DNA of 54,062 nucleotides, the filler included, from Sluysia triapertura (lineage: Eukaryota), in NCBI GenBank assembly GCA_046118255.1. It is 3 parts of 3 records of this genome, joined end to end, with 100 filler letters (N's around TTAATTAATTAA, not from the genome) between each part and the next. Parts side by side here need not be neighbours in the genome. Positions count along the whole stretch, not along the records: positions 16,076 to 28,568 come from JBJNIA010103987.1; 2 more parts are not named here. One strand, written 5' to 3'. Within the stretch, counting starts at the first letter, position 1. Each line of letters starts with the position of its first letter. Positions 13,877 through 47,918 of this stretch are shown here, piece by piece. The notes below the pieces were generated by a model that searched no databases, had not been told where the DNA came from, and saw nothing but the letters and a program-made list of their open reading frames with translations. A program made the translations under genes and the position numbers.

Positions 13877-15705
13877 CTTAATAAATAATTAAATTTCATT
13901 AAAATGTGATTCAATGTTATATGTTTTCATTAGAAATAAATTATATACTACAAAATCACAATGTAATCTAAATTACCGGGTGTCGAAATTCGTATTGTTT
14001 TCTTAAGCAAACAGTAAATATTATTGAATATATGTTGCGTGAGTATTTATTCGATGAATATTTTACAAAATTTGTAATAAATGTTGCAGTTCTTATCATA
14101 AAACTATATTATGCAAATCAAAAAGTCAATCAATTACCTTAACGAAATCCATACAAAGATGAAATATAGCATCAAAATGGAAACCAAAAATTGAATATAA
14201 CAAAATATTGTTTAAATATTCATTATAATTATTAAAATCATGTATGCAGATTTAAATTTCAAAGGTAAATTGTTATTTATAGGTGTTTTTCATAAAGTTC
14301 ATATTCGTCAATGGATTCTTTGCGAGTTTAACACGGGTTCCAAAGTCACTGAAGGTTCCAAAGGTTTTAATAAAATTTCAAAAACATCTTCAATTTTTGT
14401 AAACATTAGAGTAATTGAAGTGGTTTTAAATATTTAGATAGGAAAACTCTATGACCTAGGATATACCTAGGAAATACCTAGATATTGAAGAGCATAACAA
14501 CCTGAAATTGATTCTGTGAACACACTGCAATCCAATTCAGGATTTTCAAGAATTTCTCTATTATCAAAACTCGGTATTTAACCCTTTATAAACCTAATTG
14601 CCACATAAACGAAAAATGGGTTGAAAATAACTCACTCCTTAAAATAGCTTACACCTAAAAGGTATAACTAGAGTCGTACTTATGAATTATTGAAAATAAA
14701 TGAAACGGTATCGTCTAACATCTATTAAAACGCTAACATACGAAAAAAGCTTCTTTTGTGCGTTTAATATGATATCGCCTGACATCTATTAACAGCAAAA
14801 AATGTTAAACTTCAGTCAACATTTATCACTAGGAAAGGTGAAATTTTGCTTCATAACATACTTGAAGTCAGAGTATCATCTATTTCGGCCAATGTAATAG
14901 TTTTTAGACAGAGAGAAATAAATGATATAAAACTAATATTGATTAAATAAAAAGAAATAATGATCATTTTTGACTAATACATACATTTTTATATTTTCTC
15001 AAACTTAAAGCTTTGTGTAAAGACTTTGTACTTACTCACATATTGCACAATAAACACACAGTAAATTGCAAAGCGAATGGTGGATATTTTCGATATTTAA
15101 TTTAGATTTTTAACTATTTCTTAACTATTTCTTGTTCAGACAATAAATTTTTTAACACAATTCTTATTTTTTTATGTGATATAAACATTTTGACTCTGAA
15201 CATTTATTACAAATGTTCAGAGTAACAATGATGTGTTGTAGTAACAGTGATGTCTGCTATGTTGGTGACTAATCAAGTTTAACAATGATATTTAACAATT
15301 TTTATTTGACTGTTTATAATTATCTAATTTTATTAGTTTTATTATTTTTAATTTCATCATTTTATTAGTTCTATTATTGATTTTGATTTCATCGATTTTT
15401 AATTTGGAATTTCAAAAGATATTAATTTTAAAGTATGTGATTTTTATTATCATTTTAAATTAAATTATTTTAAATTAAAATTTTTATTAAAAACTATTAT
15501 TTTTGAATTAAATTATTCTAAATTAAGCTAATGAAATCCAATTATTTTTAAATTAAAAAATTTTATTTTGTTTTATAGAAATATGACCCTTTGTTTTAAT
15601 CTGACTTCAAGGCCAGATTAAAACTACTATATATACAATCACAAAATCACATAAAACTCACAACAATATAACAAAAATTTTGCTTAAAAATTTGTTCATT
15701 AACTC

Positions 15706-15975: not shown

Positions 15976-16075
15976 NNNNNNNNNNNNNNNNNNNNNNNNN
16001 NNNNNNNNNNNNNNNNNNNTTAATTAATTAANNNNNNNNNNNNNNNNNNNNNNNNNNNNNNNNNNNNNNNNNNNN
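15976..16075. other. Assembly spacer (N44-TTAATTAATTAA-N44)
   Basis: 100-nt pad whose 12-mer has stops in all six frames; identical to 28569-28668. Confidence 0.98.
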
Positions 16076-16398
16076 GTTTTTATTTTAAGAATTTTTAAAG
16101 AGTAGTTTACCTAAGCTGACCTTTTGATTTGACATTAATATTACGAATATTTAGAAAGAACTAAATACATATAGGGTAGACGTTGACTATACGACATAAC
16201 CACTATTCACTACTTATAATAGCTAGAATATAAACCACCTTAAGTAAACTAATTTAAGAGCAAACACTCAAAGATTTTAAAAGGTTAAGTTACTAATCTG
16301 ATAAATTCTTCACAATAAATATTACTGTAGGAAATATACTTAAAGTAATATAACTAGGATATTTCTAGAGAGAATCTTGAACTTAAAAGTGCTGTTAC

Positions 16399-16438
16399 TT
16401 ACGAATACGTCTCTTTAGGTCTAAATCGTATGTCGTAA
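16399..16438 (-). other. 40-nt conserved hairpin, family A copy (intermediate to family B)
   Basis: CTTACGA/TCGTAAG and ATACG/CGTAT stems; followed by TAACAGCA on the minus strand, where other copies have TGTCAGC. Confidence 0.65.
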
Positions 16439-17130
16439 GCGGACCATTATTAATTATAAACAATTTGCACGAATAAATAAAAAGAACAAATCGTAGTAAT
16501 TTTAAAGTTTTAATGAAATTGATTTTTGATTTCATGAATCATTTGTAATATTAATGTTTATGTAATTCAATTGATTCAGACTTATTTTTGTGTGTCTTGT
16601 TCACTACTGCATATATTGTTTCATATGCTAATTTATCTCTGATTCCAATTGATGCTTGTGAATAATAATGTGATTAACAATGTTTAATTTAGAACATTAA
16701 TCTAATTTATTAAAATTAACTAATTTTTTTTAGTTTTTTCGAGAAATACAAGATCATTTTAATTCAACATTCATTTTTCGTAAAGGAAAATTCTGCCATT
16801 ACATGCATAAATTCTTGATAGTTCCATCAGTTATGACCTCAATAATTTTCTCACTTTTTTAAATTATTTTCATTTTCTGAGTATTTTACAGATTCACAGC
16901 TTTTTTTGGATTTAATTTTTTGATTGTTTAATCATAAATGTTTTCTAATTCTACCGAATGTATAAACAGAAGAATTCATTTTTTCATATTATTATGCCAT
17001 ATTGGGCTTTTTTTATTTTTGGTTAATTTTTTATTTAATTTCAGTTCATTAAATTAGGATTAAAATTACTTTATTAAATGTAATTTTTATTAATATTAAT
17101 TGTTTTTTCATATCATCATCACAATTATAG

Positions 17131-17285: not shown

Positions 17286-17730
17286 AAATTATCTGATGAG
17301 TCGGTTCGCCTAATACATACGCTTTATACCAAAATGGAGACGTGTTATTAGGATTTACTATAATTTCTTATTTGATGTTTAACTTAACACTCTTACTTAG
17401 AAACAGTTAAAATTAATTAATTAAATTTTTTATGGTGTTGCCTTTTAAAATTATCGATTATTTCACAACCCTTGTTATGGTGTTGCTTAAAATAACTTTA
17501 TGATTTTATACTTAAGCAACCCTTTTTATGGTGTTGCTTCGAAAAACTGACTTTCTGATTTTAAAATTTACGCAACCCTTTTTATGGTGTTGCTCGTCGA
17601 AAAATATATTAAATTAATTAAAGACAAAGTGTGTTACTTCAATATTTATTAAACAAATATATACTTAAAAAACCAGAGTTGGTACTTATCAGTTTATAAT
17701 GAAAATTACGCAACCCTTTTATGGTGTTGC
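17286..17730. repeat. Structured element, locus 1: multi-stem fold plus array of five GCAAC-CC-TTTTTAT-GG-T-GTTGC hairpins
   Basis: Fold at 17309-17352 (CCTAATA/TATTAGG). Hairpins at 17426-17441 (half copy), 17466-17486, 17514-17539, 17572-17593 and 17710-17730. Confidence 0.85.
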
Positions 17731-19774
17731 TTAAAATGAAAATGAATTTTAAGTATATTTTATGATTTCCGGATGGTGAATCAAACCTTAAAGGAAAATA
17801 AAATTACTTGTGCATGGAATCTTGCAATTGACTAAAAATTCTCGAAATGATAATTTTAATCTTCTTCAGATGCTAATTTCAAAACTGTAAATTTCTTAAC
17901 TCTAAAACACTTATGTTGAAATGAAATTTTGCTTACCTATTTATACTAATTGATTTCTTTCTCCATCTTGGATTTTCTTTCTTTGATTCAAACAATTGAT
18001 TTAGTAAAACAAAAAATTTTAAAATAATTTAATTCTTGCTATTTTTGTTTAATTAATTTAAAATAATTATTAATTTTATTATTTTTATTTTATTTTATTT
18101 TCGTAATTTTATTTTGTGATTTTATTTTCAATATTTTATTTTGTAATAAATTTAAAATAATATTTTGTTTTCCAAAATATAATAATATTTAAAATAAAAA
18201 TAAAAAATAAAAAATGATTAAATAAATAAAATATAAATATGAAACATACACACAAAACACGATTCACGCAACGTTAATTCTAACAATATAAAACATAAAC
18301 ACAGTCAATAATTTCATAATTATTAAATTTTTTTTATTATTGCTGCAATATTTTCATTGTTATCATTCTTTATGCATGTACGTGTATCTTTATGTAATAT
18401 TTCTGAAATAGAAAAGGCATTATCTCTCTTTTGAATTCTATCCTTGCTTTTATAGGTTACCGATGTAATTCCTTAAGATAATGTGTTACTTGAGATCTAT
18501 TTCCCACTTTGAGAATTAGTCTTGTTGCTTGTTTAATTATCTTAATCAAAAATCCGATAAATCATTAAAGGTGAGAATCTTTAGCCATATCAATTTCAAT
18601 ATTTCAACTTATTGTAATGGAAACATGAAAATATGTCAAATTATGTTTAAAGAAATAAATTCTTGAATTAAATTAAAATTAAGGGTGCTCAATATTTTAA
18701 CTAACAATTTAGTAATTCTTAGTATAATAAACAATTATTTGATTTGTTTTGATTCGCTGCTACGTGTTAAAATTTTGTATATATTTAACGATGATTTTAA
18801 CCAAATCTCTATAATCTTGAATTTATCTAGTTTTCAATCATGTTAATTTTATACAATTTCATTTCCTTTGTACAATAAACCTTTTAGCAAAGTTTCTTAA
18901 TGCAAAATGTTACTTGATTTTAAGATTTCATACAATAATGTACAAATGATTTTATGTGAAAACTCGAACTTGTACATCAAGTTTTCTGTCATCTTCTGAA
19001 GCATACATATTTTAGTTTATGTATGTTGACTGTTAGAAATTTAGTTAATATAAAATTTAACAGAAAATATCTAACTAATAAGATAATTGAAATTTTTATT
19101 TATTTAAATCTTTTATGCACAATTATATTAGGTTGTTAAGTTCTGTTAAATAAAAAACAAATATTTTATTTTATTAAAATAATGATGAATGTATATCATG
19201 TTAATATTATGCATTAAGTTAATGTTATTACTAAATCAATAATAATTTCTTCAAATTTATTTTATACGGGCAAATTAAATTTCGCAAAAATTTTTAAATT
19301 AAGATTTTATCAAACTTTATAAAATAAATCAAAAATTAATTTATAAACTAACGAAAATTTTTTTATGTATAAAACAAGTCTCCAAAGCAAAAAATGGTAA
19401 AAATCAATAAATCAATTTGATCAACCAAATTAAATAAATTAATCAACTTGTACCAAAATAATAAGCGAACAATAGTTGTTGACAATTTATGTATCTAATG
19501 ACTTTAAAACAATTTATGTAGTTAATGACTTAAAAAGTTTTGTAGTTATTATTTATGTTATTTCATTATCCAATAATAATAATAATTATAAGAATAAAAA
19601 TAAAAATAAAAGTAAAAATAAGAATAAAAATAAAATTTCATAATCAAATAATAATAATTATAAAATATCAACTATTAAAACTAGTAAATCTTATACTTAA
19701 ATTAATTATATTTAAAATAATTTAATACATTTACAATTATTATATTTTTATTTTAACATTTTTATATATGTGCG

Positions 19775-20240
19775 AAGGTTCTAACTTAAAATGAACCCGA
19801 CTTGCAAAATTATCAATGTCTGGAGGAAAGTTGGGCTAATTAGATACGGTTTATGTCACTAACTGACGACGGTCTAATTAGACTTAATGAATGACAACGT
19901 GTGTGGTGAAGCTAAGTGATAAAAACGCAAAATTTAACAACCTTATTCATACGTTGAGACAGCCTTTACGGTCTGTCGAAAATTTAATGATTTTAAAATT
20001 AAATCAGCTTTTTACGCACTGATTAAGTTTGGCAAATGATTTTAAATACAAGAAAACTTTACGATATAAAGGTTTATTAATCGTACAGAGTCAAAATAAA
20101 CTTCAATTAATATAAAACTTAGACAAAAGTATAATACCAATAATATTTTAAATCTTAAGGTATTGATCCTACCTTTGATTGAAATGATTTTAGTTGAAAG
20201 TTTAAGTCAGCCTTTTTACGGTCTGACAATAAATTAAAGA
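19775..20240. repeat. Structured element, locus 2: multi-stem fold plus three bulged hairpins
   Basis: Fold at 19836-19881 (CTAATTAGA/TCTAATTAG, GTCA/TGAC). Hairpins at 19958-19977, 20002-20024 and 20206-20227. Alignable by eye with 32562-33051. Confidence 0.85.
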
Positions 20241-20933
20241 TTTTAAGTAGGAGTTTAGCCCTATTTAATTAAAATTAGGACATGAAAAAACTTATTAAAA
20301 TAGAATTTCTTTTTCATGGAATAAATTGAGATCTTATAAAAACTGGAATATTTTAATTTCTCTATGGCGACTGTCTGTTTTGTGTCTTGTGAATGTCTAA
20401 AATTTTGTTAATTATTTGGTATTTTTATACCTGTTTTTTGTCATCCATCTTGTTTAATTTAAACAAATTTTTAAATTGATCTATTTAAACAAAAAATTTT
20501 TTAAAAATAATTTTTCGTTTTCATTTAAATTTATATTTTAGTTTTATTTGGCTAAATAATTTTATTTAGATAATTAATTTATTTTTATATGATAATAATA
20601 TTTACAATTAGTATAAAATAACACAAACAATAAATAAAATAAATAATATAAACAAAATTAATCAAATCAAATAAATCAGTTTATAATCAAATAAGTTTTA
20701 ATAAAATTAATAAAAAATCAATCAAATCAATCAAATCAATCTAAATCAAATAAGTAAAAATCAGTCAAATCAGTTTGAATCATATGAATAGGTTTCTAGT
20801 AGGTTTTCTCCTCTAATCCAACACATGGCCAATATACAATGTTACACATGACAGTACCAAATAATGTATCCGGTCATATGAAAATAACTCAGCTCACTCT
20901 TTAGTTAAATTACAAAATGATGGTTATTCTTTT

Positions 20934-23900
20934 GTGACGAATTATAATTCAGATAAAGCCATTAAAATGTATGGATTTCGAGATTCAAATTTCCGAAAGC
21001 CTTATAGTCCAAAAAAGAAGTTAACAGAATATGAAAATAAAATGAATACTTATGTATCTGATATATCAAACGATATTAAAATTAGTGATGAAATGTCACC
21101 TACAATTTCTTTAGAATGTATGGTTTTAGAAAATGAAATTGATAGAAGTGATAAATTTAGTGAGTTTGTTTATACATTTTGTGGTGCTTACATTTATGTT
21201 TGCATGTACATACTTTATTAATACTTATTATTTTGCTGCCATAATTATCTTATCATTTTTATTTAAATTAACACGTTATGTTGAAATAGGTAATGAACTC
21301 CGCTGGGATTCAGTTAGATATCTTCTAACCATATTTTTGCGAATTTAACCATATTTTCTGCAAATGCTGCTTTAAATTTCGATATTATCATGGCAAGTCT
21401 GTGATCTTATATTAACCATATCGTAGTCTATTATTATTCAATGGAAACTATAACACATTTATGCATAATATTGTATGTATATGGTAAATTTCACAGTCAT
21501 CAAGTGATAATTACTATATTGCGACAGTCATTATCTTATATTACAATATTTACTACTACCATTATTGGTTGTACATTTTTATTGTTAGATATTGCTTTAG
21601 AAAGAAATGTATTAATATCACGTCATAACAATCAAACTAGCTTATTTCTAGAGATATGTTGTGTTATTTCCATATTTTATTTTGAATTTAATTAAATGGT
21701 TATTTTGTTTCGTTAAAGGTCTTAAGCCGAAATTTAATGTTTTTAATGTAAAAAAGAATAATTAAAATTTATCATTTATTTAAAATAATTTTTAATTTAA
21801 GCAAAAATAATATAAAATTTTTAAAACCCACGACAGTAGATTCACCATCTAAATTTCATAAGTAATTCTTTTATTATTTTAGTGTTTATATTTACTTCGG
21901 CCAATGATGTGTAAAACCTTTTCAAATTGATACATTTCTATACTTTCGATGTAATTAAGCAAGAAATTTTTCATCAAAATTTTCCGCTTTTTTCCAAAAA
22001 CTATTTTAGCTTTCATACATAATTTCGACGAATCACTAGATTTTTTCACTGCGATTTGCATTGCATTCAGATCATGAATTTACATAAGATATATGCCTAT
22101 CAAATATTTTCAGACGTATAATTTATATAATGTTTAATCAAATCTTAACAGAGATATCACAATAATCGCAATTCAGCTGTCAAACACAATGGAACAAACC
22201 TCTAAAACGATTTGATGCAAATATTATTGATATGATGAGCTCAAGACAAAAACGCACTTATCATCAACACAATCACAAACAAACCTCAAAAAAATCCAAC
22301 ACGTTTATCATAAACAAAATCTGAAACAAACTTCAACTCAATCTAATACATTTATCAAATCACCAAATAACAATAGCAATTTTTACACGACATCACAACG
22401 CAAATTCAATATATATTCACAACAACAAACAAAACATGTATGAACTTTAACAATCATATACAGTTTTACAATCAAAATGTAACATGGTTATTTAACATTA
22501 CTCTAAAATAAATAATGGCTCTTAACTGTAATGTATATATAGATTATTTATATATTTATTCTGCTCGATAAAATTTTAGTTTGCAGTTGATTTTTACTAT
22601 TCTCTACGATGTATGTATTTTTCTCTGAGTTCTTTTGGTTGCATATGTTTATTTACTGTGTAACTTTAATCAGTCTAAAATTATTTTCTAGAGTTCTTAT
22701 GCAAGTCTATTATTTACGAGTCTTATACTCGTCTCAGGTGTACGAGATGGAAGTGCTTAGATGATACTTTAGGCTTTACTTTATTTCTATAAGTTCTGTT
22801 GCATTTCTATCTGTTGATTAATCTTTATTTTATCGAATTTTAATTCTTCAGGTTATTTTATCAAATTTTAATTTATTAACCCTAATGACTTATTAATGCT
22901 TCTTTGACAATTTTTAACTAATTTTGACAATTTCACCGCCTTTAGGCAACTTTAACAGTCTTTTATAAACTTTAAGTTAATAACCCTCTTTTTCTACAAT
23001 ACGTTGGGTTAACAACAAATTTTATTTATTCAAATTTCCTTATCGACTTTACTTTAATTTTTTTACAACATAAAAATTAAATTATATTAACAAAAATTTT
23101 TATTTAAGAATTAGAACGTTATATGTAAATATCAACAACATAAATATAACAGAATTTAATTAAATTAAGCCATAAATTAGTACCTCACTCGTAATATAAA
23201 CGCCTCGGATTAGTTCATATACAATTACACTTTTCATAAATAGTCTTCGGATGGAGGACAGAATGCGAATGATCTGTTTCAAATTAATTATTTTGAATAC
23301 AATAAGTCGATTTACTTTATATCACTACAAGATCTCTACAAAAGCTCTTATCGATTTCGATTAATTCATTGTTCTGTTGGCACTATACATAATGTATTAA
23401 TTTCCGTCGTTAATAAAAGTTATAATAGTATGTATTAAATAGTTACACTAGTATGTCCTGCTTAATATTAGGCTGAAAATTTTATTATTATTAGCATTTA
23501 GTGATTTCATACTATGATTAACTTCATAAAAATTTATTTTATACTATTAACATTCCTATATTTTATTACAATCTTGTTTTAAGATAATTTTAATTGAATA
23601 TAATGTTCATTTAAGATTATTTTATTGATCTAATCAATTACGATATTATGAGGTTTAATGTTTTTAGATTTTGATTTCTATAAAATTCCGATTTAAAATG
23701 ATTTTTGCTATTGGAACATTCAAGCCCTTCTAAGAAATTTTACTTTTCATTTCATTATTTAGCATTCATTCATAACTTTATCAGCATTCGATATTATTTT
23801 CATACAATTTTAATATAATATTTTAAAATTATTTTATGAATATTATGCTTGTATGAATATATCGTATGATTGTTATGAATATATCATTTGAATATAATAT

Positions 23901-25401: not shown

Positions 25402-25520
25402 GTGAGTACTCTATGACACCGGGCTTACGCACTTAAGAGCCTATGCATAGATGTCAGCGAAAGGTTATTGGAAAGAATGGAGAGATTAAACAGAATTATT
25501 GATCCGCTAAAACCAGCGAG
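25402..25520 (+). other. Family A hairpin element copy
   Basis: GTGAGT, 40-nt hairpin at 25411-25450 (CTATG/CATAG, GGCT/AGCC), TGTCAGCG, TATTGGA and a small CGCT/AGCG hairpin. Close to the 44792 copy. Confidence 0.8.
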
Positions 25521-28470
25521 TTTATTTGCAATTTTATTATATTTAAGATCTAAAAAGATGTGAATTCGATAATTTAAAAATTACTATAAATGTCCAAAAA
25601 TTTATTATATAGTAATAATTTTCGATGATTTATTAAAGTTATATAATTTGAATTTCACGTTTAAGGTTTCAAAGCTATGGAAAAGCTTCTTTTCTTAATG
25701 ATTCAAAAATTTAAATCTTATAAATTAGTAAAAATAAACCGAATTATTTATTTTAAATAACATTAAAATAATTTACTATAATCTACTATAAAATTTATTT
25801 GTGTATAGAAAGTATGATATAAAAATTGATCATGGTGATGTTTAGTTAATACTTCGTAATAAAAGAGATACAAATTGTAAATATTATTATTTCAATTATA
25901 ATAAAATATATCTATTTTTTATTTAGATTTACTGTAAAAATTTTAATAAATATTACAGATTTTAACTTATTTTTTAAAATTAATTAAAAAAATCTCATAA
26001 ACTAACGTTATACAAATTCTAGTGTATATATGATTTAACAATTACTATGTGTTCAAAAAAACTCTTTGAAATAGTATTGAAATAATTTGATGTTAAAATT
26101 GTTCACAAATTTCTTGCACTAGAAAATTCAATGTTAAAACTTTAAAAATCAGTTCAATTATGTAATGTCTAACTTAAAATTATATTACTATATCGATTTT
26201 TAATGACCTTTAAACCTACACAACTATTGTTTTAATTATTCTCTAGAATAATAATTAATAATAATATTAATATAAATAGTAATAATAATTAAGTAATAAT
26301 AATATATTTTTTAATAATAATAATGTTAATTTTTTATAACTATTTCAAAACTATTCTGTTTCTTAAAATGAATTAAAACAATTCACATTATTACATAGAT
26401 TAATTATATACATTAAAATTACCTACATTTACTACAAACTTTTTTTACATATCGTACAATCTATTATAACAAATTTCTCCATTCAATCAATACATTTTTT
26501 CTTCTGTTGCTGCAGTGTTACTGCTTACTTATTCATCAAAAATTTTGTTAGATTAATATGTATTGTTTTATGTTCAATCTTTCGTTCTTTGTTTATTTTT
26601 GTGGGTTAATTGGCCGTTTAAGTTTTGTTAGTTTGGTTTCACCAGGACTTAAACCTTAAAATTTTTATAATTTAAAGGAAATTTTAAGAGAATTCGAGTT
26701 AAACAATTGAATATAACATATCGATAACACGTAATCCAAAATACATTTGCTTGAGCGAAATAGATAACTGTTGAATTATTAAAACAGCCCTCAAAATTAA
26801 GTTTTAGAAAATAAAAAGAAATCTTATTTTCTTTATCAGATTATTTTGTCGCTATTCAGCGAGATTACTTCCTACTATATTTTATATGTTATTCGTTTTA
26901 TAAGGATTTTTTGGTAAGATTTTAAGTTTAACTTGTAGGTAAGATAAGTAGTTCTTTTCGGGTATAATTTAAAGCAAATGTAAAAGTATTAATATCATAT
27001 TAATCCCAAACTAATCGATTAATACAAATTAAAAAATTATATTCAATTAATCAGTTACACTGTTAATTATAAAATTATACTCAATTAATCAATTAAACTG
27101 TTAATTACACACGAATTATGAGCAACCTTCGAATTGTAAATGTATTCAAAATAAAAATATATTCGATAAGAATTATAAATATATAATCCAATATTACTAT
27201 TTTGTTAATATTTCGTAATTAAGAGATTATGTTAATAATTTATTTTCGTAAAAAATTTTACTAATGTTTAAATACGTATTAAGTATGAAATTTAATTTTT
27301 TATTAAAATAAAAATAACTTATAATATTAACTAACGAGATTTTTTCTTTCACAGGAGACAAACAAATTTTTGGTACTACAATCGATGAAATTAAATGGAT
27401 TATATAATTCAATAGTTATTTAAGGAATCCGAATATAAGTTTTTCTTTAAAACTACTACTACAATAAATGTTCAAAATGAACGCCTTATTAATGTAACTC
27501 TTAAATTATTTTTAGAACTACTCTTTGGTTAATAATAATATTATACAAATTCAACCTTATCTACTACAACCTTATATACACAAATAAGAATGCTTTTGTT
27601 ACACTTGATATGATTGATTCATAACGCTAGCTAGTATTTAGACTAATTGATAAATACTTTAATATATTAGTAAATAATAAATACTTTAAAATAATTGTTA
27701 TATAAAAATTGTTAATAATATTAATTATAATAATTACTATTTTCTTTAATTTACTTATTTTTTATTGGTATATAAAGAAATAAACTTTATTTAATGAAAA
27801 TCGAATGCTCACTTCTCAGCTTATCAATGCAGCTTACCAATAAATAATATAAAAGGAGTTCGCCTACGATCCTAAACTTACGAGTTACGGTTTTGAGAAA
27901 GGTTATAAATATTAAGCAATGCAATAGAGGTCAAACATGTTTACAGATTATTTTGAGTGAAATCATAGGATTTATTTCTAATCTACATAAGTTAATCTTT
28001 TAATTCTAGGTTCGCACTGAGGCGAGATTAATAGAATTTAGACCTTATAATTCAATTTCTGTGTAATAGTTAGATTGATATAGTGTAGAATTTTACTCAG
28101 GTTCTATTTAAACATAACCGCGACAAAATATTTTGTTTTTCGCTCTTATACATCGAAATGATTTTTGAAAGAAAATTGTAAATTAGTTATATTTTGTTGT
28201 TGATCCAATTTAAAGGGATGAAAGAAGACATAATTTAAAAGGATTCAAGGGTTAAGTTTTATGTTTTAAAATATTTTTTAATCGAACAGAAGTTACTTTA
28301 TTACGAATAATTAACAAGTCAATATAGTTATCAAGTAACAAAAATTTAAAGATACACTGATAGTAAATTAAAATTCTTTTCTTGTATAATATACAATAGT
28401 TATTTTATAAGATTATAACTATTTTTATAAATTTCTTCAATTCAATATTTATAACAACTTTAGTATAGAC

Positions 28471-28568: not shown

Positions 28569-28668
28569 NNNNNNNNNNNNNNNNNNNNNNNNNNNNNNNN
28601 NNNNNNNNNNNNTTAATTAATTAANNNNNNNNNNNNNNNNNNNNNNNNNNNNNNNNNNNNNNNNNNNN
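28569..28668. other. Assembly spacer (N44-TTAATTAATTAA-N44)
   Basis: Same 100-nt pad as 15976-16075. Confidence 0.98.
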
Positions 28669-29097: not shown

Positions 29098-31172
<2,075 letters not shown>

Positions 31173-31987: not shown

Positions 31988-32100
31988 GTGAGTTCCTTAC
32001 GATCCTGGAATTACTCACTTAAAGGCTAGTTCTTAAGTGTCAGCAAAAAAATAAATAATTGGAGGTCAATTAGGAATTGGTGCTATGACGAATGCTAATG
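31988..32100 (+). other. Family A hairpin element copy
   Basis: GTGAGTTCCTTACGA...TTACTCACTTAA...TAAG-TGTCAGC; hairpin at 31997-32036. Confidence 0.75.
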
Positions 32101-32561
32101 TATTTTGGATGTTAATAAGTTAATAATAATACTAATAATAGGTGAAGTATTTTATATATGATCCTAATATTTAAAAAGGATCTGAATTCTGTTGATATGA
32201 CTTTGGACTTTATGATTTGTTTTTCTAATTTATTATAAACAATTTATTTATTGATTTTTTTATTTAACAATTTATTTATTATTTTATTGCAATTTATTGA
32301 TTTGTTTTTAAAATCATTTAGATTTAAATTATTGGAATAAACCAAGTAATTATATTTATTTTAAATTATTAATTAGACATAAATTTTAATATCATTAAAA
32401 TTAATTAAACTTAACAAATAAATTAATTAAATAAATAAATTAAATGTTTAAATAAATTAAATAAAATATATTGTTTAATTCTGGCCAAGGCCAGCTAAGT
32501 CGACTATTATTGGTCGCAAGATTTACCAAGCATCTCACATTTTTGTAAACACAACTTTTCA

Positions 32562-33051
32562 AAGGTTCTGTCTTAAAAGAAACCTATCTAACAAAATCGT
32601 TAATGTCGGGAGGAAAGTACGGCTAATTAGAGACGATTTATGTCACTAGATGACGACGGTCTAATTAGACTTATGAGTAACGCAAAGAAATTAACTGTTA
32701 AAAATAATCACAATTATGGCGAATGATGTGCAATAGGAATGTAGAATAGTTAAAGTTAATAATAGAAATGCGAAATAATTGAGGTTAATAACCTTAATTA
32801 TACTTTAAGACAGCCTTTTTAAGGTCTGTCAAATGTTCAAATAATTTAACGGTTAAATCAACCTTTTTACGGTCTGATTAAATTATCGTGGATTGTAAAT
32901 AAAACAAACTAAGTTGACTACCGAATAATTTTATTCAAAAAATTACTGTAATAGACTTTACAAGACAAACAATATAATAATGATAATATTTTGAATCTTA
33001 AGATAATTATCTTAGATTACAAAATCAAATTTTAGTTAAAGTTTAAGTCAG
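32562..33051. repeat. Structured element, locus 3: multi-stem fold plus bulged hairpins
   Basis: Fold at 32623-32668. Hairpins at 32809-32830 and 32856-32879; a third is cut off after TTTAAGTCAG at 33051. Homologous to 19775-20240. Confidence 0.85.
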
Positions 33052-34628
33052 TATTGTGGTTATATTATGATTAATTCGAAGATTATAATATTTATATTTG
33101 ATAATTATTGTATTAACATTATTAATTACTCTACATTTAATTACATTTAGATCTATTATATAAATTCTTGCACGTTTTCAAATATTTATGATTAAAAAAT
33201 TAGTGCTTAAGGCACAAATCGGTTTCATTATTAAATGAAAATTTTGCAATATAAAAATACAAGGTTGTTTCATTTATTAACCACGACAGAAAAATTTTAA
33301 TCATTCTTGACACATAATAAGTCATATAAAAACTACAATTCTTACGTCTCGCATTATTAATGAACCTAACTGACACTTGATAGCTTGACGACCGAGTGCA
33401 ATTTGAATTTGACAATCTAATTCCTTCACTTATGTAGATAACCACGCATTTGTCATTTTGATGCAATTTATACGCCTTATTATAGTCCTTTACCATGCTT
33501 TCCAGGTAAACGTAGACAAGTTTATAAGATTTAAAACTAAACATGATTACATTACTTAAGTTATGACTATCTTGTAAATTGAAATTAATATAAAAGCTAT
33601 TATAAAGTTCGATTTGTAATAAATCAAAATTTTTGTTATACAAAATAAAATAAAGACAGTTGAATATTAATTTTAAAAGAATAACAGTGATTATTTTTAT
33701 TTTAGTTATATCATGTTTGGAGGTGATGTTACAACAGAAATAACGTATAAGTAATAAGTGTCATTAATTCTTTTTATCGCCAAAACTTCCTTAAGTTTAA
33801 AATTATATAAGTATTTCAAATAATGATCTAAATAGAAGGATATTCTAGTCGCTTAAGTTTATTATATTCATCATATTTGAAGTAAGGTAAGTGTCGGTAG
33901 TACTCTTATTAACGACACTTCTTTAATTTTAAATGTTTTTAAATAATCAAATTCAAAATTGAACATATAATATGTTCAATATTGAACATATAATAAACCA
34001 AGTAATGTGCTGCTCGACCAACTACATCATGCCTTTTTATTACTACTCGATCACCATTATCACCAGTAGCCAAATTCGAGAAGGATTGTGGTATCATCAT
34101 CATTGAGAAGTTCCTTTTTTACATCTTTCACTTGATAGTAATACCATTCTATATTTAATGTTTATCCTTCACCTGCTACATCGCTTGAATCCACTTGCAT
34201 TTCAAATATAGTAAACCATTGAACCATCGGACAATAATTTAAAAAATCTTGAATTTGCATTTTTGTCTGTTTTTGGATGGTTATATGTTATATTTATATG
34301 CTACATACACTATGAATTTAATTGGCCGTTGTGTGTATGTTATTACTATAATTATCCTCATAACCATCGTCATTATTGTAATCATTATCATCAGATTGAT
34401 TGTGATCATCACTATATATATGATCATCATAATTGTAATTATTATTATTACCACTACTACTACCATTTTTATTAGTAGTAGAAATTAGGTTTTGTAATGT
34501 ATTTAAAAGTAGCATTTGTTTACGTTTGGGACAGTTTTCATATTATTGTTTTTGATGATTAGCAAAAAATAAACATATTTTTCGATTACTGCTAATCAGG
34601 AATTAACATATCACACGCGTTATATGAT

Positions 34629-35413
34629 TTATTTAAAATTAAAATTATATTTATATTTGAGAAATACTGTACATGTACATACATTTACAAATGTTAAACA
34701 GAAGACCAACTCTCGAGATGATTTAAAAATTTTTGATTGTAGTGGCAAAGTTTCTAATACTTTATGAGCATGTTTTAATAACTGTACAGATAATTGGATT
34801 TTATAATTTAATATTTTAACAACTTTGAGAACCATTAAATATATGAGATCTTCTTTGCACTCAATATTAATGGAATTTATATTTGTTAAACTATTTTCTA
34901 AATTTTCTTCTGAAATAACTTCTGCTTCTAGAATAGAAATAATGTTGTCTATCATTTTGATATCTCTATTATTATATCACCATTTTTGTTGGCCACCGTC
35001 TGCGTTCAAAGTGGAATATCTTTGCAATGCTGGACAAATCCGAAATTGTGTCAAAAGCTTCCGTATGGTCATTTACGTTTGTAATCAAAAAAATAAAAGG
35101 GAAACTTGAACTAAGAGAAAATAAGCACAAAACACGTACATTTCAGATATAAAAATATAAAATAAAAATTGAGAAATAGAGCAAGAGGAGAGTGTGTCAT
35201 GACGATGATAAAAATGACAATGAAAACTGAGTTTAATATTTTGATTTAAAAATGTTAATAAAAGAAATTTTACTAGACGTTTGTGATTTTATAATGATAA
35301 GTAGTGTAATCTTGTGAATGATGTGTAAAATTTGCTATGGTATAATTTTTTGTGTTGAGGTTTGTGTAGATGGTTTATGTGATGTGTAGATAGGTGTAGG
35401 CTGGGCCACTACA
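34629..35413 (-). mobile_element. Gypsy-like LTR (35413-34987), PBS-like TGG and gag-like ORF relic
   Basis: Minus strand begins TGTAGTGGCCC, ends GGCCAACA, then AAAA-TGGTGA, then ORF 34955..34629. Confidence 0.55.
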
Positions 35414-37049: not shown

Positions 37050-37769
37050 TATCTCCTTTATAAATTTAACTTGAAGAGTGAGTTATTTACTCGTCTTTGT
37101 TCTTAAAGATGGAAATGCGTATTGTAATTCTTATAATTTATTAACCTCAATTCTTATTTTTCAGTTCCTTTTAAATGAACTAATGAACTTTATTCAAATA
37201 ATATATTTGAATAAAGCTGAAGTGAAATCGAAATATAGTTTACATTGAATAATAATTCTCTATAAATCTTTCTGCAAAATAATTCACAATCAAAATATAA
37301 CTTTACGTCGACTATAAATTACTTATTCCTTGCTATTCAGTAACAAAGTATGAATTTAAAATTTGATTTTAAATACCTTGTGCAGGAAAATAACTAACTT
37401 TCGAAACTGCCTTGTAAATTGTCTGCAGATAGAAACCAAAGGGACCACTTTGTGCAATTGAGATTATTTGTGATTTTGTCAGTGTTTACTAAATAAAAAA
37501 AGCACACATAGTAGCTCTGGTTTGTATATCAATAACAATTTATTTATTTGCATTTCAATAATCATTTTGTTGCTATTTGTATATGATACAGCTTTGTAAC
37601 TTTCAGGTTACATTGGGCTATTGTGGTAGATTTGAGTGTTTAGAAAGAGTTGTGCTTTATATTTTTAAATTTATAAATCAAATAGCCAAAATTTGGATAC
37701 AAAATCATAAAAAAGAGAAATTAGTATTAGCAGTAATAGATCCGAATTTCTTTATTAGATTCTGAGTCC

Positions 37770-38045
37770 GATGAAGATCACCCAGTAGCATTTACCAGAC
37801 GACACAAATATTATTGACAGTGACGACGAACTGAGTACTGAGGAAAATTCAATACCGCAAAAAATTGTTTGGCAATCATACCAGACGAATAATAATTGTC
37901 ATCGCTATTGGAAAGGATATTGACATGTGACTTATTTTCGAAAACTATTTTAAATCATGAGTAATGTAATGGACTAAACCAATACATATACAGTGCAGTT
38001 TGATCCAGCAAAACCCATAGGTGTGTAAGATTTATTTGGTGTGAT
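37770..38045 (+). mobile_element. piggyBac transposase N-terminal relic
   Basis: Acidic IIDSDDELSTEE, then VTYFRKLF and NTYTVQFDPAKPI in broken frames (cf. piggyBac-family TN.Y..Q.DP.KP). Confidence 0.5.
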
Positions 38046-38050
38046 TATTT

Positions 38051-38160
38051 ATTCCTTACGATGTTAGACTTCCTCACTTAAGGGCCTAATTAAATAATTA
38101 ATGTTATAATGTCAGGAATTTAGTTTCTGTCTTCTTGCAATGACAGGTTAAATTATATAT
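38051..38160 (+). other. Family A element, partial copy
   Basis: TCCTTACGATGTTAGACTTCCTCACTTAAGGGCCTAA, with a tail (TGTCTTCTTGCAATGACA) resembling that of the 6817 copy. Confidence 0.7.
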
Positions 38161-39329
38161 TTTACTTCGTATCCCAATTTAATACTAAACTTTATAGATT
38201 TATCAAGAATATTTAGAAGAGTTATTCAAACTATAATAACTTTTAAATAACCACTATGATGAGATTTTGTAACTTCTCTTTCATTTTGTAGAGATGGAAA
38301 TGATATTAGTACTTTAAACCACGAAATGAAGTATCTGCGAAATTAAATTACTGAAAATGAAATTTACGTTTAAGTGAGGAGTAGAACTTTAATTATTACT
38401 TAAATGAGAAATACAAACTTTAATAAAAAGTTATTCAAAAAGCAAATTATCACTTAGAAATACAATTTTAAAATAGGGTTACATTTTAAAACTTTTAGAA
38501 TTTTTCACAAAATTTATTTTATTCGACTTTTTCGATTATTGAAATTATGGAACAATTATTTTGAATAGGATTCTTAGGCAAGATTAAAAGGATTCCAAGG
38601 AAATGTGAATTCAGTTAACAAATTGTCAAAATGTAGTGACGGGATTCCAATAAAGTTAAGTAAATTGTCAGTGTGTATTAATATAATAAAGTTAAATAAA
38701 TGATGTCTAACTTTTTCACAAAGTTGTTTATCAAATGAAATATGGTAAATTATTGTTCAATTTTCGTGACATCTTTATTACGTTCGATCTCCATCCATAT
38801 AAGCTTCCAATATCTAACCAATTTATTTCTATAACAATTCATAAGTATTTAGATTTACACTCTCATTGTATAACCAGTTTCTGCATAAATTGTCATTCAT
38901 GTATTTATATATATTAGTTAACTATAATTTATTTTATAGTTTTAGCCAAGTACCTTTGTGCATTTACATCCGCCATGCTAGATAGTATTTGTGCTGGTTA
39001 CTAATTTTGAGCTATTTTTCTTATTTTATTAGTATAATGGATTCCTAGCTACTTTCTCTGGGTTTGTTTTTAATTTCCTTGTTTTCCTTCTTTAAAGATT
39101 TTTCCAAAGTATATAAAAATACTTTGGGTATTTTCTAACGATTTCTCTAATTTATTTAATTTAGTCATAATTTTTTCTGAGGTATTTTAAAGCCAATTTT
39201 AAATACGTTGAGGAAGAAGTTTGTCGCCGTGTTATAATAATACTTATTCAAAAATAACCAATCTTCAAAAGAAAGACCATCATTATCCAAAAACCTCCTG
39301 CCACGATCCGTAAGGTTTTGGATTTGACA

Positions 39330-40513: not shown

Positions 40514-42796
40514 CACTAGATTGCCTGAGATTTCTTGTATATCTATATTGCCCAAAAACAGTCAAAATAACTGCATTGTGAAAAAATAACTAATGTGCAA
40601 AGAAATTTGTTTAAAATTATTTTTTAATTTTTATATTATTTACACTTATACAACAAGTTATTAGTAAATATTAACAATAAAAAAATTTACTCTAATTGGA
40701 AAAAAAATAATTTATGCATTATTATTTGTAAATTTTATGCAAATGAAAGTGGAAATCTTTTTATGCGTACATCTTTTGACATTTTTCACATATTATTTGT
40801 TTTGTTGTGGCAAAGTCGTACTTGAAAAAATTTGCGTTTGTGAGAATGGGTTGCATTTGATCTTTGTGGGTCTTCATGTTCTGATAAATTTTTCTGTCTT
40901 GCAACTCTGTATTCGTTGGAAAGCTGTTCTGCTAATTGAATTAAGAACTCTTTTCGTTCTATTTGTATTCCTGTCGTATCTTTGTAAATGATCCAAGAAT
41001 TTATGACAGCCAAATCTAAAATATTGAAAAATATTTGGAGGGGCCATCTACGAGAATTAGCTTTTACTGTATATTTTCTGGCCATCTGATCCGCCATATC
41101 AACTCCAAATTTTGTACTGTTATAAAATTAAATTGATTCCGGTAACATTTTTTTATTACTTTTATCAATTTTAACAAATTTATGCTTAGAACTTTGAACA
41201 GCTACTTTTTAATTTGGTTTGTTTTTATATATTGTAACACAATTCTCTTATTTAAATAACAAAGTGGAAAAACGAGGCATGTTATCCTTCGTTTGTTTGG
41301 CTGCTTTTGGTATTTCTCTTTGGTTTCCTCTAATAGTTCCAACTAGAGTTGATTTATGACCAATAATTTTGTCGCGAGTGACACGCTAGTGAAAAAGTTA
41401 TCGGTCGTGATATTTTTTCCACAGTTTGCATATGGCTCGACAAGTTTCAGAACAAAGTCACTGAGAAGCATTGACGATGGTCGTTGTTCATCTTTCCCTA
41501 AACATGAAAACCATTCAAAATATATTTGCTACTAACATATAATACAAGTCAAATTTGTTGGGTTTATTAAGTGTATATTGCGTAAACCTGCACCTGGTTT
41601 TTGACGGAAATAATTGCTCATCAACTGTTATATTTTGCCCTAGTTGATAGCAAGCTTGACCATTTTCAATAAACCTCTCCCATATTTCCGAAACCAGAGC
41701 ATATTTATTTGTTTGTAGGCGCCTACTTCTTTCGGTTCTTTTGTCAAAACGAATAAATCGTATGATTTGCTTGATCGTTTCTCTGGTCATAGTTTCTCTA
41801 AAAAATTTGGGACCCCACTTTGCTAACCATAAATAACTCAATTTTAAATTTTTTGCATCGTAGGATCCACAAACATATAAAATCCCAATAAATGCATGTA
41901 TTTCCGTTAATGTTGTTGTCCAATCGTTCCGCAAAATTCGGCGGCTTTCTGTGCACTTTCTTATATGTTTAATAATATAGTTATCTATTATCAATGAGAA
42001 TGCACTGATAAGATTATCTGTCATAATGTTCCTTTTAGCGTAGCCTGTTGGGCCTTTGGCACCCTTGAAAATATAAGTAGATGGTAACCTTCCAGGAATA
42101 CCACCTTGGTTAATTTTTGTCCACATATTACCATCAGCAGCTGTTTCGACCTTCTGAAACGTATTTTCAGTTTCTTTATCAGAATCTGAACTAGTTAGCA
42201 CCCTACACCTTTTCCTGGGCATATTGATGATAGTTTCATTTTCATCACTGGTGATAGACTTTTCATCGCTATCTTCAGCATCAGATGTTTCACTTTGAAT
42301 ATAATCCGCTTTGTTGCATTTGATTCTATATCGGAGCACTCTTCACTTATGTTCCAATAACTCATTTCTGTTCGACATTTTTTTCATGAAGTTAGGGCAC
42401 ACGAAATAAAATAAACAACTTGTTAGAACAACACTCGAATTTAGTTTCTTGAGCAATTGCAACTTATCAGGTATACGCCCAAATCGACAATTTATCATGC
42501 ATCGGTATGTTACCGTAATCGAAATTTACTCAATTCAATAATAAGAATCTTTTGATTATTTAAAATTTCCCAAGCAGTCAACATGACTGCTTCTGGGCAA
42601 TATAGGTATATATAGGCAATGTAGGCAATATATACGGAAGTAAAGCAGGGCGGAAGTAACTACAATTATTCATAAACGTATTTATGTGCTGTTGAAAAAG
42701 TCACCAAATTCTAAAGAATTGTGTCATTATATACATAATTGTTTTTCTAATTGAAATTAAAAAATAGTCAAAATGACTGTCTTGGGCAATCTAGTG
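40514..42796 (-). mobile_element. Full-length defective piggyBac transposon (2283 bp)
   Basis: TIRs CACTAGATTGCCYRAGA (15/17 match); TTAA on the right and CTAA on the left; internal inverted repeats at 40543-40574 and 42574-42605; encloses a transposase. Confidence 0.93.
40735..42378 (-). pseudogene. piggyBac transposase (PGBD4-like) with frameshifts and stops
   Basis: ORFs 41515..42339 and 40786..41097 plus intervening frames give ITVDEQLFPSKTRCRFTQY, ITTDNFFTS, GVDMADQM, SRRWPLQIFFNILDLAVINSWIIY and a degenerate C-terminal Cys-rich domain. All three catalytic Asp motifs are present. Confidence 0.93.
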
Positions 42797-43570: not shown

Positions 43571-44615
43571 GACTAGCATCAGTTTAGTTACTCTCCATTT
43601 TGTAATTCCACCCTTTTGAAGTTAGTAACAATTTGTAATTTTTCGCTTGGTGCAATTTTGCAACGTCATTGTTGGAGGAATTGTGAAATTTTAGTAATTG
43701 TTCACAAATCAAAATTTTGGAAATATCTGTAGAACCACAAGTATTCAATTTATTGGTAAGTTATATATTTTCAAGTTCAATTTAAACTTTAGAAGTTGAA
43801 ATTATAAAATTTGCAATTTTTAAGTCCCCGATATATTGAGGGGTAATATACACTCAAATTATTAAAGTTAATAGATTAAACGCTCTTGGAACTTTAATCC
43901 TTAATTATTATTACTCTAAGATCTTTTGTTGTTTATTTAATTATTAAAATTTCATTATCTTAGCATTTGTTAAAGACCCTAACTGCAGAACATTTATAAA
44001 ATATTAGCTTATTCACGACATAAGACGTTTAATGTAACCGGACCCTTGCCGTAGGTTAAGTATTATAAAAACCGCAGTATTTCTAATTTTGCAAAATTTA
44101 CCTTCAAAGAAATAAGAATATTTTAAAAAGCATATTAATAATTTCTAAATAAAAATTTTAAATAAAATTAAACTAATATCTTGTTCAATTTTTATTTTAG
44201 TGATCAAATTAAAATTAACTTTAATAAAAACAGAACCAGTAACAATAACAATAACATGTAAAACATAAAAGTAGTAATGCAACTCTTGATCTTTCGAAAT
44301 TCATCAATTTATTGTATTTTAATGTTCTCATATCATCAGCCATTACTATAACCAACATATCTATTTGTTCTTCGGTTAATATTTTTGAGTGTAGCTGTAC
44401 TTTATTCAACATCTTTAATGATAAGCTCATCATCGTCATTATTTGCGTGTACTTTATATTTATTTTCATCTAATTCTACATCTTCAATATGCACCAACAT
44501 CAGTTTAACATCGAATTTTTAGTCATTTTTAATCAGGAACATATTGATTCATTGATTTTTTTATTTTTTGTTTACAACACCAATAAATTAAAACTTATTA
44601 TTATATAATTATTGA

Positions 44616-44791: not shown

Positions 44792-44925
44792 GTGAGTCCT
44801 CTATGATACAGGGATAACACACTTATGGACCGATACATAGATGTCAGCGTAAAAGAGTATTGGAAGCTTTTAGGTCAAGAAAAATTTGAATTGGATTTCT
44901 GCTAACTTTTAGCGATGTTATAATT
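44792..44925 (+). other. Family A hairpin element copy
   Basis: GTGAGT, 40-nt hairpin at 44801-44840 (CTATG/CATAG), TGTCAGCG, TATTGGA and a GCTA/TAGC hairpin. Confidence 0.8.
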
Positions 44926-46003
44926 ACTTATTTTATTTATGATCTAAAACCATCCTTGATTAGCTATTTTAATGTAAAATAATGTTGCGTTTTTAGATAG
45001 TCAGAATTTTTATGAATTTATAACAATTTAAATTGAATATTACGAGAGGAAATTAATAATCTAAGTCTCACTATTAATTTAATGATATTTCTTTAACGCA
45101 ATATAATAATTCAAGTGTTGTTTATATATTTGGTAAACAATAATACAATTTAAATTTATACAACAAAAATGTTAAGTAATGCAATAAAAGTTATAATAAT
45201 CAACGAAGTCAAAATTAATTAATTAATACAATTGTTAATAGAATATACGAAATATTACTTCCAAAAATTTAAATAAGTGCAACTAATGCGATTGATAATT
45301 ATTCACAAATTATGCAATTAATACAATTAGTCATTATACAAATTTAAATATAATGTTTGTGATCGTTAATTCATAATCTAAAAAACACAAACTAATATAA
45401 ATGATTAAATTACAAAAATTTAATAATTATGAAATACATTAAATAAAACTAAAACTTGTTCAATTCAGACTGTTTATATAAGGAATTAGTTAAATTTGAG
45501 TATTATTAATTGTATTATTAATAATAATGTTTCTCTTTTTTAGATTGATTCTATATTAGTAACCAAATTTTACAGAAATTAAAAAATATCTTTTCATTTA
45601 TTTTATTTTATTTTGTAAAATTAAAACCTTATGAATATATAAACTAACGTGACACCAAAAATTAAAATAATAGAGTTTTTTGATTTCAAATTATCAAAAA
45701 ATCTATAATCACTGTACTGTGCAAAAAATCTTGAATGAATGAAGAATTGTCTTTTAAAAAAATCTTTTTGTATGACAAATAATTCAAAATTCTACTTGAT
45801 CAAATGAGTTAGAAATGAACGTGCTAACTTCAACTAAGTATTCAAATTTCATATTCCCTTATACTCAATTCAATTTTTACATGAATATATATAATAATTC
45901 TATATATAATTCTATTCCATTAATAAGGTATTTAAATATTTAATACTTAATACATATAAATTGTATTTTACATTTGTGATTTATATACTTTATAAGTCTT
46001 ACA

Positions 46004-47663: not shown

Positions 47664-47918
47664 GACTGATTTTTTTCCTGGTCTTGGCTGGATGTTATTG
47701 AGATCATTTTGGCACGAAATTCGTTTGAAATGGCCTACCAGTTTTTGGGATGAATATCTTCGTGATCCAGTTGTTCGTAAAGGTCGACAATGTCTTAGAC
47801 CGGAATTGCCAAGGACTGCTACATTCGGACGCAAAGGAGTCTCTAATGGACAGTTCTTTGATAAGCATCTTCGATATTTAATGCTCAATAATAAACTGTT
47901 TAATTTTTGTCGAATTAT
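47664..47918 (+). CDS. MGAT1: Alpha-1,3-mannosyl-glycoprotein 2-beta-N-acetylglucosaminyltransferase (GlcNAc-TI, GT13), one internal exon
   Basis: Bounded by TTTTAG and GTAAGC. TDFFPGLGWMLLRSFWHEIRLKWPTSFWDEYLRDPVVRKGRQCLRPELPRTATFGRKGVSNGQFFDKHL matches the MGAT1 signature RTDFFPGLGW..W...KWP..FWDDWMR......R.CIRPE..RT.TFGRKGVS.GQFFD.HL. Confidence 0.95.

Follow-up and report, generated by a model that had tools for sequence, protein, structure and literature searches.

Does a short hairpin that recurs through a stretch of animal DNA represent a structure kept by selection, and if so, what might read it? The question is raised by a 40-nt element at position 25411, with copies elsewhere in the window (the whole stretch of DNA analysed here, 54,062 nucleotides with filler, from Sluysia triapertura). 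A preliminary description of these copies, made from the sequence, had viewed them as a possible retroviral-type dimerisation or packaging signal, or else as the core of a short interspersed element. In what follows the element is called hairpin A, its copies are named by position, and published work is cited for excerpts of the papers named.

The window is animal DNA with a G+C content of 24% (for comparison, that of Dicyema japonicum is 36.7%). It consists of three segments, whose adjacency in the genome is not assured, joined by two identical 100-nt linkers (15976-16075 and 28569-28668), each with 44 N on either side of a 12-nt palindrome that has stops in all frames; the KDM5 gene terminates at the second linker. 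The named KDM5 proteins closest to that of the window are at most about 63% identical to it (BLASTP). In a KDM5 tree of 22 rows the protein grouped with neodermatan (parasitic) flatworms with support of 95/91, a grouping that may reflect long-branch attraction because the tree was built without the obvious long-branch groups (planarians, orthonectids, dicyemids and myxozoans). KDM5 contains introns of 29 and 42 nt (30967-30995 and 30787-30828, minus strand), and kilobase introns also occur in the genome; for 51 animal genomes, the excerpt of PMC13644364 reports introns of less than 30 bp in myxobolids and dicyemids only. A profile search of the 25-kb segment for the remainder of GNT-I, a conserved gene, detected just one exon, for which very long introns, a captured fragment or a mis-assembly are possible reasons. 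Coding-like segments with no Pfam match (1520-2140, 33942-35142, 33200-33760 and 44224-44518 on the minus strand, and 20865-21218 on the plus strand) are probably exons of fast-evolving host genes. Also present are a frameshifted piggyBac-type transposase (PF13843; 40789-42383, minus strand) with inverted repeats that are 75% identical (40517-40594 and 42555-42632), a second relic that resembles an acidic N-terminus (37740-37920), a weak mariner-type HTH match that falls under the cut-off (PF17906, E 0.003; 14216-14434, plus strand), and a MITE-like 30-bp inverted repeat (36734-36763/37022-37051, 97% identical, spacing about 260 bp).

A bulged hairpin in dispersed copies

The five 40-nt copies first described (6817, 16399, 25411, 31997 and 44801) were all confirmed at their positions and align without gaps. 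The switch of their basal stem between two sequences is also as described, and 7 of the 12 pairs are changed on both sides among the five copies, which bears out the compensatory changes that had been noted. Each hairpin has a 6-bp stem I, a bulged A, a 6-bp stem II that includes mismatches, and a 17-nt apex in which a short inner stem forms (Table 1); RNAalifold, run on the five copies, returned the identical fold. In a leave-one-out profile, four of the five held-out copies scored 31.6-34.2 bits, a level that none of 106,286 other positions reached. The 16399 copy scored 12.6 bits, close to the background maximum of 12.0, yet it forms 11 of 12 pairs, as 0.05% of the background does. Across the five copies 85% of the stem cells are paired and the covariation was equalled by none of 500 shuffles, whereas controls in which the alignment was slid were 22-38% paired.

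The folding energy of the hairpin is weak (z-scores from +0.45 to -2.45), and in a context of about 200 nt the pair probability of stem I is 0 in the 44801 and 31997 copies. Within the 42-nt hairpin no indels are seen in the five copies, while the flanks contain many. The closest copies, 25411 and 44801, differ at 11 of 56 sites; four of these differences fall among the 24 stem positions, and none of them breaks a pair. Two partial copies had also been noted, one of which (38056) is a genuine derivative by internal deletion and the other (27864) a weak relic: this scored 24 bits against 31997 (null 99th percentile 17.6), gave an nhmmer E value of 4.4, and was absent from the results of the first covariance-model search. 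Broader covariance models, run over the window, revealed no further copies; the best new E values were 1.8 for hairpin A and 0.82 for the B hairpins described below.

Table 1. Positions of hairpin A copies, related repeats and host genes in the window
Feature	Positions	Strand	Details
5' flank, index copy	25402..25409	+	begins GTGAGT, as at 31988 and 44792; preceding 40 nt 57% T
Hairpin A, index copy	25410..25451	+	stem I 25410-15/25446-51; bulged A 25416; stem II 25417-22/25440-45; 17-nt apex; CTTAAG 25432-37
3' body, index copy	25452..25555	+	motifs 25452-58, 25468-72, 25547-55; small stem 25506-17; about 100 nt of homology with 44801, score 26.1, above all 150 null pairs
Sister copy (44801)	44792..44950	+	hairpin 44800-44841; identity to index 45/56; 10/12 pairs
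31997 copy	31988..32150	+	hairpin 31996-32037; 9/12 pairs; about 850 nt upstream of KDM5 start codon, opposite strand
6817 copy	6678..6892	-	hairpin 6816-6857; 11/12 pairs; 5-bp palindrome downstream near 6709-6726
Divergent 16399 copy	16392..16490	-	hairpin 16398-16439; 11/12 pairs; no homology to other copies downstream
Sixth copy (17309), missed in the preliminary description	17301..17358	+	hairpin 17309-17352; sibling of 16399; 19-nt apex
Deletion derivative 38056	38047..38175	+	left arm, apex and partial right arm; tail 79% identical to 6817 over 66 nt
Decayed relic 27864	27855..27908	+	left arm readable, as is stem II; stem I without its right arm
Likely distant relative	19775..20231	+	A-like hairpin 19836-19881, 21-nt apex, shifted bulge; B hairpins 19958, 20003, 20206
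Sister of 19775 repeat	32562..33050	+	A-like hairpin 32623-32668; B hairpins 32809, 32857
B hairpin array after 17309	17461..17734	+	hairpins 17465, 17516, 17572, 17710; 5-bp stem, 2-bp C-G stem, T-rich loop, bulged T
KDM5, 5' half	31145-29097	-	
CLASP-like gene, exons	13888-10957, perhaps reaching 7512	-	name CLASP from a reading of the sequences
GNT-I, single exon	47659-47915	+	in the 25-kb segment

Selection on pairing

A structure-only scan gave nine matches, made up of four known copies, the new copy at 17309, and others. Stem II and the apex alone are sufficient to place 17309 with 16399 (score 39; next unrelated 26), and since the copy can be recognised without stem I, its stem I provides an independent test of pairing. 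When compared with its sibling 16399, three of the six pairs of this stem are doubly changed, two of them by transversion, and all six are still paired (chance 0.001). With all six copies taken together, 62 of 72 stem cells are paired, where neutral evolution gives 42.5 on average (sd 4.9); among 20,000 tree-aware neutral simulations, which used a fitted tree and a fully paired root, one reached 62. Double changes are present in 8 of the 12 pairs, and the CpG observed/expected ratio of 1.00 indicates that CpG decay is not the source of the compensatory pattern. Hairpin length had been thought fixed; the 19-nt apex of 17309, and the 21-nt apices of the likely relatives 19836 and 32623, refute this, so length is constrained rather than fixed. 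Only 10 of the 72 stem cells are unpaired though the copies differ by 20-55%, and thus most of the divergence arose under pairing selection, either in active lineages or at each locus. Hairpin A is genuine and is under selection for pairing.

The repeats at 19775 and 32562 carry A-like hairpins (19836 and 32623, the second of which was found by a relaxed scan). These repeats are 83% identical over 112 nt and homologous over about 450 nt in all; their hairpins have arms of the same lengths as hairpin A, with the bulge displaced. Against 16399 and 17309 they score up to 20-22 bits (null 99th percentile 17.6). Downstream, the similarity of 17309 to 19836/32623 is not significant, so that the link is probable, not proven; from these comparisons of sequence, 19836 and 32623 are likely, at moderate confidence, to be distant relatives of the hairpin A family. 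Just 5' of the 32562 repeat, at 32481-32520 (plus strand), lies a GC-rich 14-nt palindrome with smaller palindromes, which could be an element end; no partner copy of it was found within the window.

A second family of small hairpins, B, consists of nine members in three plus-strand arrays (17461-17734, 19954-20231 and 32805-32882) with a unit of about 50 nt; one array lies downstream of each of the 17309, 19836 and 32623 hairpins. The B stems are 95% paired, 15 of their cells are doubly changed, none of 500 shuffles did as well, and the covariation is seen both within and between arrays. On the opposite strand, the geometry of the B hairpin may resemble that of the MS2 operator.

Compensatory change could also be mimicked with no selection on structure, if inverted-repeat homogenisation (template switching or cruciform repair) copied one arm from the other in dead repeats. 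Several of the double changes are adjacent (columns 9-10 and 13-14), as one copying event would yield, the folds are weak in two of the five copies, and covariation may have sources other than RNA structure, according to the excerpt of PMC11234323. However, such copying should erase the bulge and the mismatches of stem II, and the bulged A is invariant in six of six copies, as is the B bulge in nine of nine. In addition, arms that are short and far apart are poor substrates for inverted-repeat copying. We regard this explanation as distinctly improbable.

The repeats that carry the hairpin

Hairpin A was shown to be the best-conserved part of a clade of non-coding interspersed repeats of about 200-500 nt. 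There are about 10 copies in 54 kb (about 1 per 5 kb), and the six intact ones are at most 80% identical; about 100 nt of downstream body is common to 25411, 44801 and 6817. Both orientations are seen (31997 lies antisense upstream of KDM5, and 16399 and 17309 diverge, 850 nt apart), and the copies have no fixed relation to genes. The 6817 copy probably sits in a CLASP intron, in sense orientation, a placement that we hold weakly. Upstream homology is general when measured against random pairs, but a composition-matched null leaves 3 of 21 pairs below 0.01; two pairs of copies have sequence in common 50-65 nt upstream (p 0.002 and 0.005), and in the 19836/32623 pair at least 60 nt of homology, which is not A-rich, precedes the hairpin. 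T-rich DNA (55-57% T) is found 5' of 5 of the 10 copies, a level that 3-5% of background windows reach.

No copy has an assignable reading frame, and at none of the 10 is there a target duplication above the null. No Rep/helicase relic was detected in 297 ORFs or in 30 frames read through stops with Pfam; the latter lie beside 7 of the 10 copies, mostly on one side or strand, with the other flanks covered as stop-free ORFs only. The coding relics common to the flanks amount to one weak match (E 0.04). Dispersed as they are, in both orientations and with no assignable frame, the repeats show the behaviour of non-autonomous mobile DNA.

The earlier suggestion that the hairpin forms the core of an interspersed element is borne out in a broad sense by its dispersed copies, both orientations, homologous flanks and deletion derivatives. 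No pol III B box is present in the six copies (a relaxed scan of 10 copies gave two poor matches), and a tRNA search of the sequence found none. On the opposite strand 5 of 10 copies have an A-rich stretch, without a repeat unit; old copies could have lost both tail and duplication. The lack of a B box, a simple-repeat tail and a target duplication means that the family cannot be filed as a SINE. SINE superfamilies (CORE, V, Deu, Ceph and Meta) each share a central domain, and the apex motif of hairpin A may resemble that of CORE.

Comparison with known RNAs gave little. Rfam returned no match in the whole window at the gathering score, and E-value scans of four regions, which did not take in those of 44801, 38056 and 27864, gave none near a cut-off, the best having an E value of 0.16 and 20.7 bits against a cut-off of 65. 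Identity with an snRNA or SL RNA, which had been named as a possible objection to the family, was not found in the regions scanned, and snRNA, SL RNA and snoRNA (including H/ACA) were rejected: besides the lack of an Rfam match, in 18 of 21 pairs the upstream "leader" is no more alike than its composition would give, and an Sm-like site is found downstream only in 6817. Self-cleaving ribozymes (hammerhead, HDV-like, twister, pistol and hatchet) have no Rfam match either, and their core motifs are absent near the six copies save for one distant chance match that resembles an HDV loop. A hammerhead-core-like 8-mer (17293-17300, plus strand) abuts the 5' side of the 17309 hairpin; about 0.5 such matches are expected by chance in the window, and its partner motif is absent at the expected distance. 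SECIS and IRE were rejected by inspection, by their motifs and with Rfam. A hairpin intron of the introner type was rejected too: GT...AG spans of 53-56 nt do exist in four of the six copies, but the homology runs about 100 nt beyond the AG.

Like the nematode sbRNA/Y RNA genes (PMC4450293), which are dispersed and divergent, hairpin A has two stems parted by one bulged base, a G-C pair that closes the loop, and, on the 5' side of that loop, a motif like TTA. The excerpt of that paper gives as features a bulged C, a GUG-CAC upper stem, UUAUC and a poly(U) end, whereas the base bulged in hairpin A is an A, the others are absent from the alignment of its copies, and there is no Rfam match; this candidate too was rejected. 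The exact degenerate pattern of hairpin A had no match among GTDB genomes, and blastn of the index copy against phage and plasmid sequences gave short matches only (E 0.05-0.7). A different stem, in which the 5' flank would pair with the left part of the apex, does not covary (269 of 500 shuffles), and a flank-apex pseudoknot gave a weak signal (12 of 500). The family may be undescribed: no description of it appeared in a literature search that covered few subscription journals.

The dimerisation or packaging signal of the preliminary description would be a palindromic kissing loop in the 5' leader of an LTR retroelement. Retroviral DIS palindromes are remarkably conserved, by the account in the excerpt of PMC516450, and hairpin A is like such sites (HIV-1 SL1) in that it is a stem-loop with internal loops and, in some copies, a 6-nt palindrome. 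CTTAAG had been placed in three copies. Among full copies it is found in 25411 and 6817 (two of five), the third being the broken 38056 only, and hence in three of six examined copies; the 10-nt palindrome of 6817 was confirmed at 6828-6837. The 17309 copy lacks CTTAAG, so that the palindrome is present in two of six intact copies and missing from four, and it lies partly inside the apical mini-stem. In loop-loop homoduplexes of the six loops, 6.8-97.7% of shuffles were as good. Unlike that of HIV-1 SL1, as excerpted in PMC516450, the palindrome of hairpin A is AU-rich, partly paired and mostly absent, and has no LTR, primer-binding site or gag as its context: there is no PBS-like motif in the six copies, and no gag domain was matched in three frames after 25402 (Pfam, read through stops). 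The gag relic proposed earlier, LPLYDDSP, is in a minus-strand frame (from 25338) that hits stops within a few codons, and no Pfam retroelement family was matched. When the opposite strand of the 6817 copy is read, it shows TG...CA at its ends, AATAAA and a motif like TATA; these are similar to the LTR motifs in the excerpt of PMC3601003 and raised the possibility of a solo LTR. This was rejected, since the homology continues beyond the supposed end on both sides (p 0.005 for one; for the other, 2 of 15 pairs with 0.004 and 0.009), and the flanking sequences differ, with no 4-6-bp duplication. With the palindrome not conserved, homoduplexes no better than shuffles, and neither gag nor a primer-binding site, an LTR end or a duplicated target found, a dimerisation or packaging signal is very improbable.

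Candidate roles of the hairpin

We consider it rather probable that hairpin A is a signal of a mobile element, of whichever class. The repeats would be non-autonomous elements derived from many master lineages, and the mobilising enzyme would read the fold-back in a single-stranded intermediate, with the shape (stem, single bulge, stem) selected more than the sequence. We tentatively suggest that hairpin A may act like the left-end subTIR/IR hairpin of the Helentron-derived HINE/DINE-1 elements. A rolling-circle Rep/helicase, supplied by an autonomous partner elsewhere in the genome, would recognise the fold-back on single-stranded DNA, nick close by, and place the new copy in T-rich DNA with no duplication of the target. 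In this version the B arrays would correspond to the central repeats.

In DINE-1 there is a 13-bp subTIR with an IR 3-22 bp away, and recognition of the fold-back by the Helentron Rep is a hypothesis in the excerpt of PMC4067079. HINE/DINE-1 elements have a 5' subTIR 2-4 nt from the 5' end, at TT, a 3' subTIR with a 3' palindrome, and T-rich targets that are left unchanged (PMC4067079, PMC7492417), and they carry short central tandem arrays (PMC7492417). Hairpin A likewise has an arm of 13 nt whose inverted partner lies at a distance of 17-21 nt, as in the subTIR/IR arrangement, together with a T-rich flank at half the copies, central tandem arrays, no target duplication, and deletion derivatives; in the 6817/38056 pair, a palindrome that lies about 30 nt short of where the homology stops would also suit HINE. 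Unlike the HINE/DINE-1 subTIR, the arm does not lie 2-4 nt from the 5' end, but has a minimum of 8 conserved nt before it, and a minimum of 60 nt in 19836/32623; hairpin A also differs in its invariant single bulge and conserved apex, and the central repeats are themselves covarying hairpins. An inverted copy of the arm, as a 3' subTIR, is found within 6 kb of 1 of 10 copies, which is the chance level, though the ends may be decayed, and a 3' palindrome is seen in the 6817/38056 pair only, not in 25411/44801. Given the lack of a 3' subTIR and the distance of the arm from the 5' end, the family is not filed as HINE. Against this version there are also the lack of a Rep/helicase relic in the frames read, the moderate strength of the link between 19836/32623 and hairpin A, the invariant bulge, which fits RNA equally well, and the fact that nearly every copy is its own lineage, which is unusual for a dead repeat.

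The main alternative, somewhat unlikely and with that bulge read in RNA, is that hairpin A is the signal of a retroelement clade, either the 3' stem-loop of stringent LINEs and SINEs or an element in the UTR of another retroelement. On the opposite strand the hairpin would be followed by the A-rich stretch with AATAAA; reverse transcriptase would bind the bulged stem and prime at the tail, and copies would be 5'-truncated. Stringent LINEs need a 3' stem-loop, the stems can be swapped, and UnaL2 requires one bulged nucleotide (PMC4176376), and such tails are reported with compensatory stems and conserved flanks (PMC3747384). In four of six copies the opposite strand carries AATAAA no more than 25 nt from the 5' flank of the core, the A-rich stretch adjoins 5 of 10, and homology on the far side stops at variable distances. 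The likeness to the UnaL2 and ZfL2 stem-loops (PMC4176376, PMC3747384) thus consists of a bulged stem with compensatory change and an adjoining A-rich stretch on one strand; unlike those ends, as excerpted there, hairpin A has no clean simple-repeat tail, ORF2 relic in the frames read or tRNA head, nor is there a target duplication or pol III box. The other strand also folds better: that on which the hairpin was first described is favoured in 7 of 10 copies, strongly so in 17309, and the best-folding copy is far weaker on the strand opposite to it (-8.3 against -16.1 kcal/mol). (Wobble pairs do not fix the strand, with two G-U against one shared C-A.) Moreover, in 19836/32623 homology that is not A-rich runs past the supposed start of the tail.

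The copies might instead belong to a structured RNA or cis-element family used by the host, possibly transposon-derived, with each copy kept at its own locus; examples would be a protein-binding stem in introns or UTRs, or a fold that hides a donor-like GUGAGU motif through pairing with the apex. Consistent with such a function, the closest copies have accumulated 11 differences in 56 sites without breaking a pair at any of the four in stems, the hairpin is free of indels in five copies where the flanks are rich in them, the density is about 1 per 5 kb, and the flank-apex pairing gave its weak signal (12 of 500). Against it, 2 of the 10 copies are plainly dead, and in 31997 three of the 12 pairs are broken; the orientation to genes is inconsistent, Rfam gives no match, and neither a pol III promoter nor an Sm site that recurs consistently was found; 16399 and 17309 either lack the donor-like motif or have it out of place, and apex position 28 varies uncompensated. 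We judge this role unlikely.

As one more repeat family, hairpin A would be of merely modest interest. Structured cis-signals in non-autonomous elements are already known; what is new here is how widely the lineages are spread in only 54 kb, together with a bulge that does not vary and a second array of covarying hairpins. Were each copy kept at its locus, it would be a new host RNA or DNA element. There is a small chance that the family represents an undescribed class of mobile element or host RNA, with a two-hairpin shape code (a bulged-A stem-loop plus arrays of bulged small hairpins) at about 1 per 5 kb and with each copy under pairing selection; thousands of loci in this animal would then have in common a fold that a protein reads, while their sequences are hardly conserved at all. 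If the HINE-like reading is true, the copies would constitute a natural mutational scan of the fold-back recognised by the Helentron Rep. The natural variation reveals what is read, namely the stem lengths, one bulge and the closing G-C pair. In small AT-rich invertebrate genomes repeats are mostly unclassified, and tools that use sequence only would break up the hairpin A clade into unrelated families.
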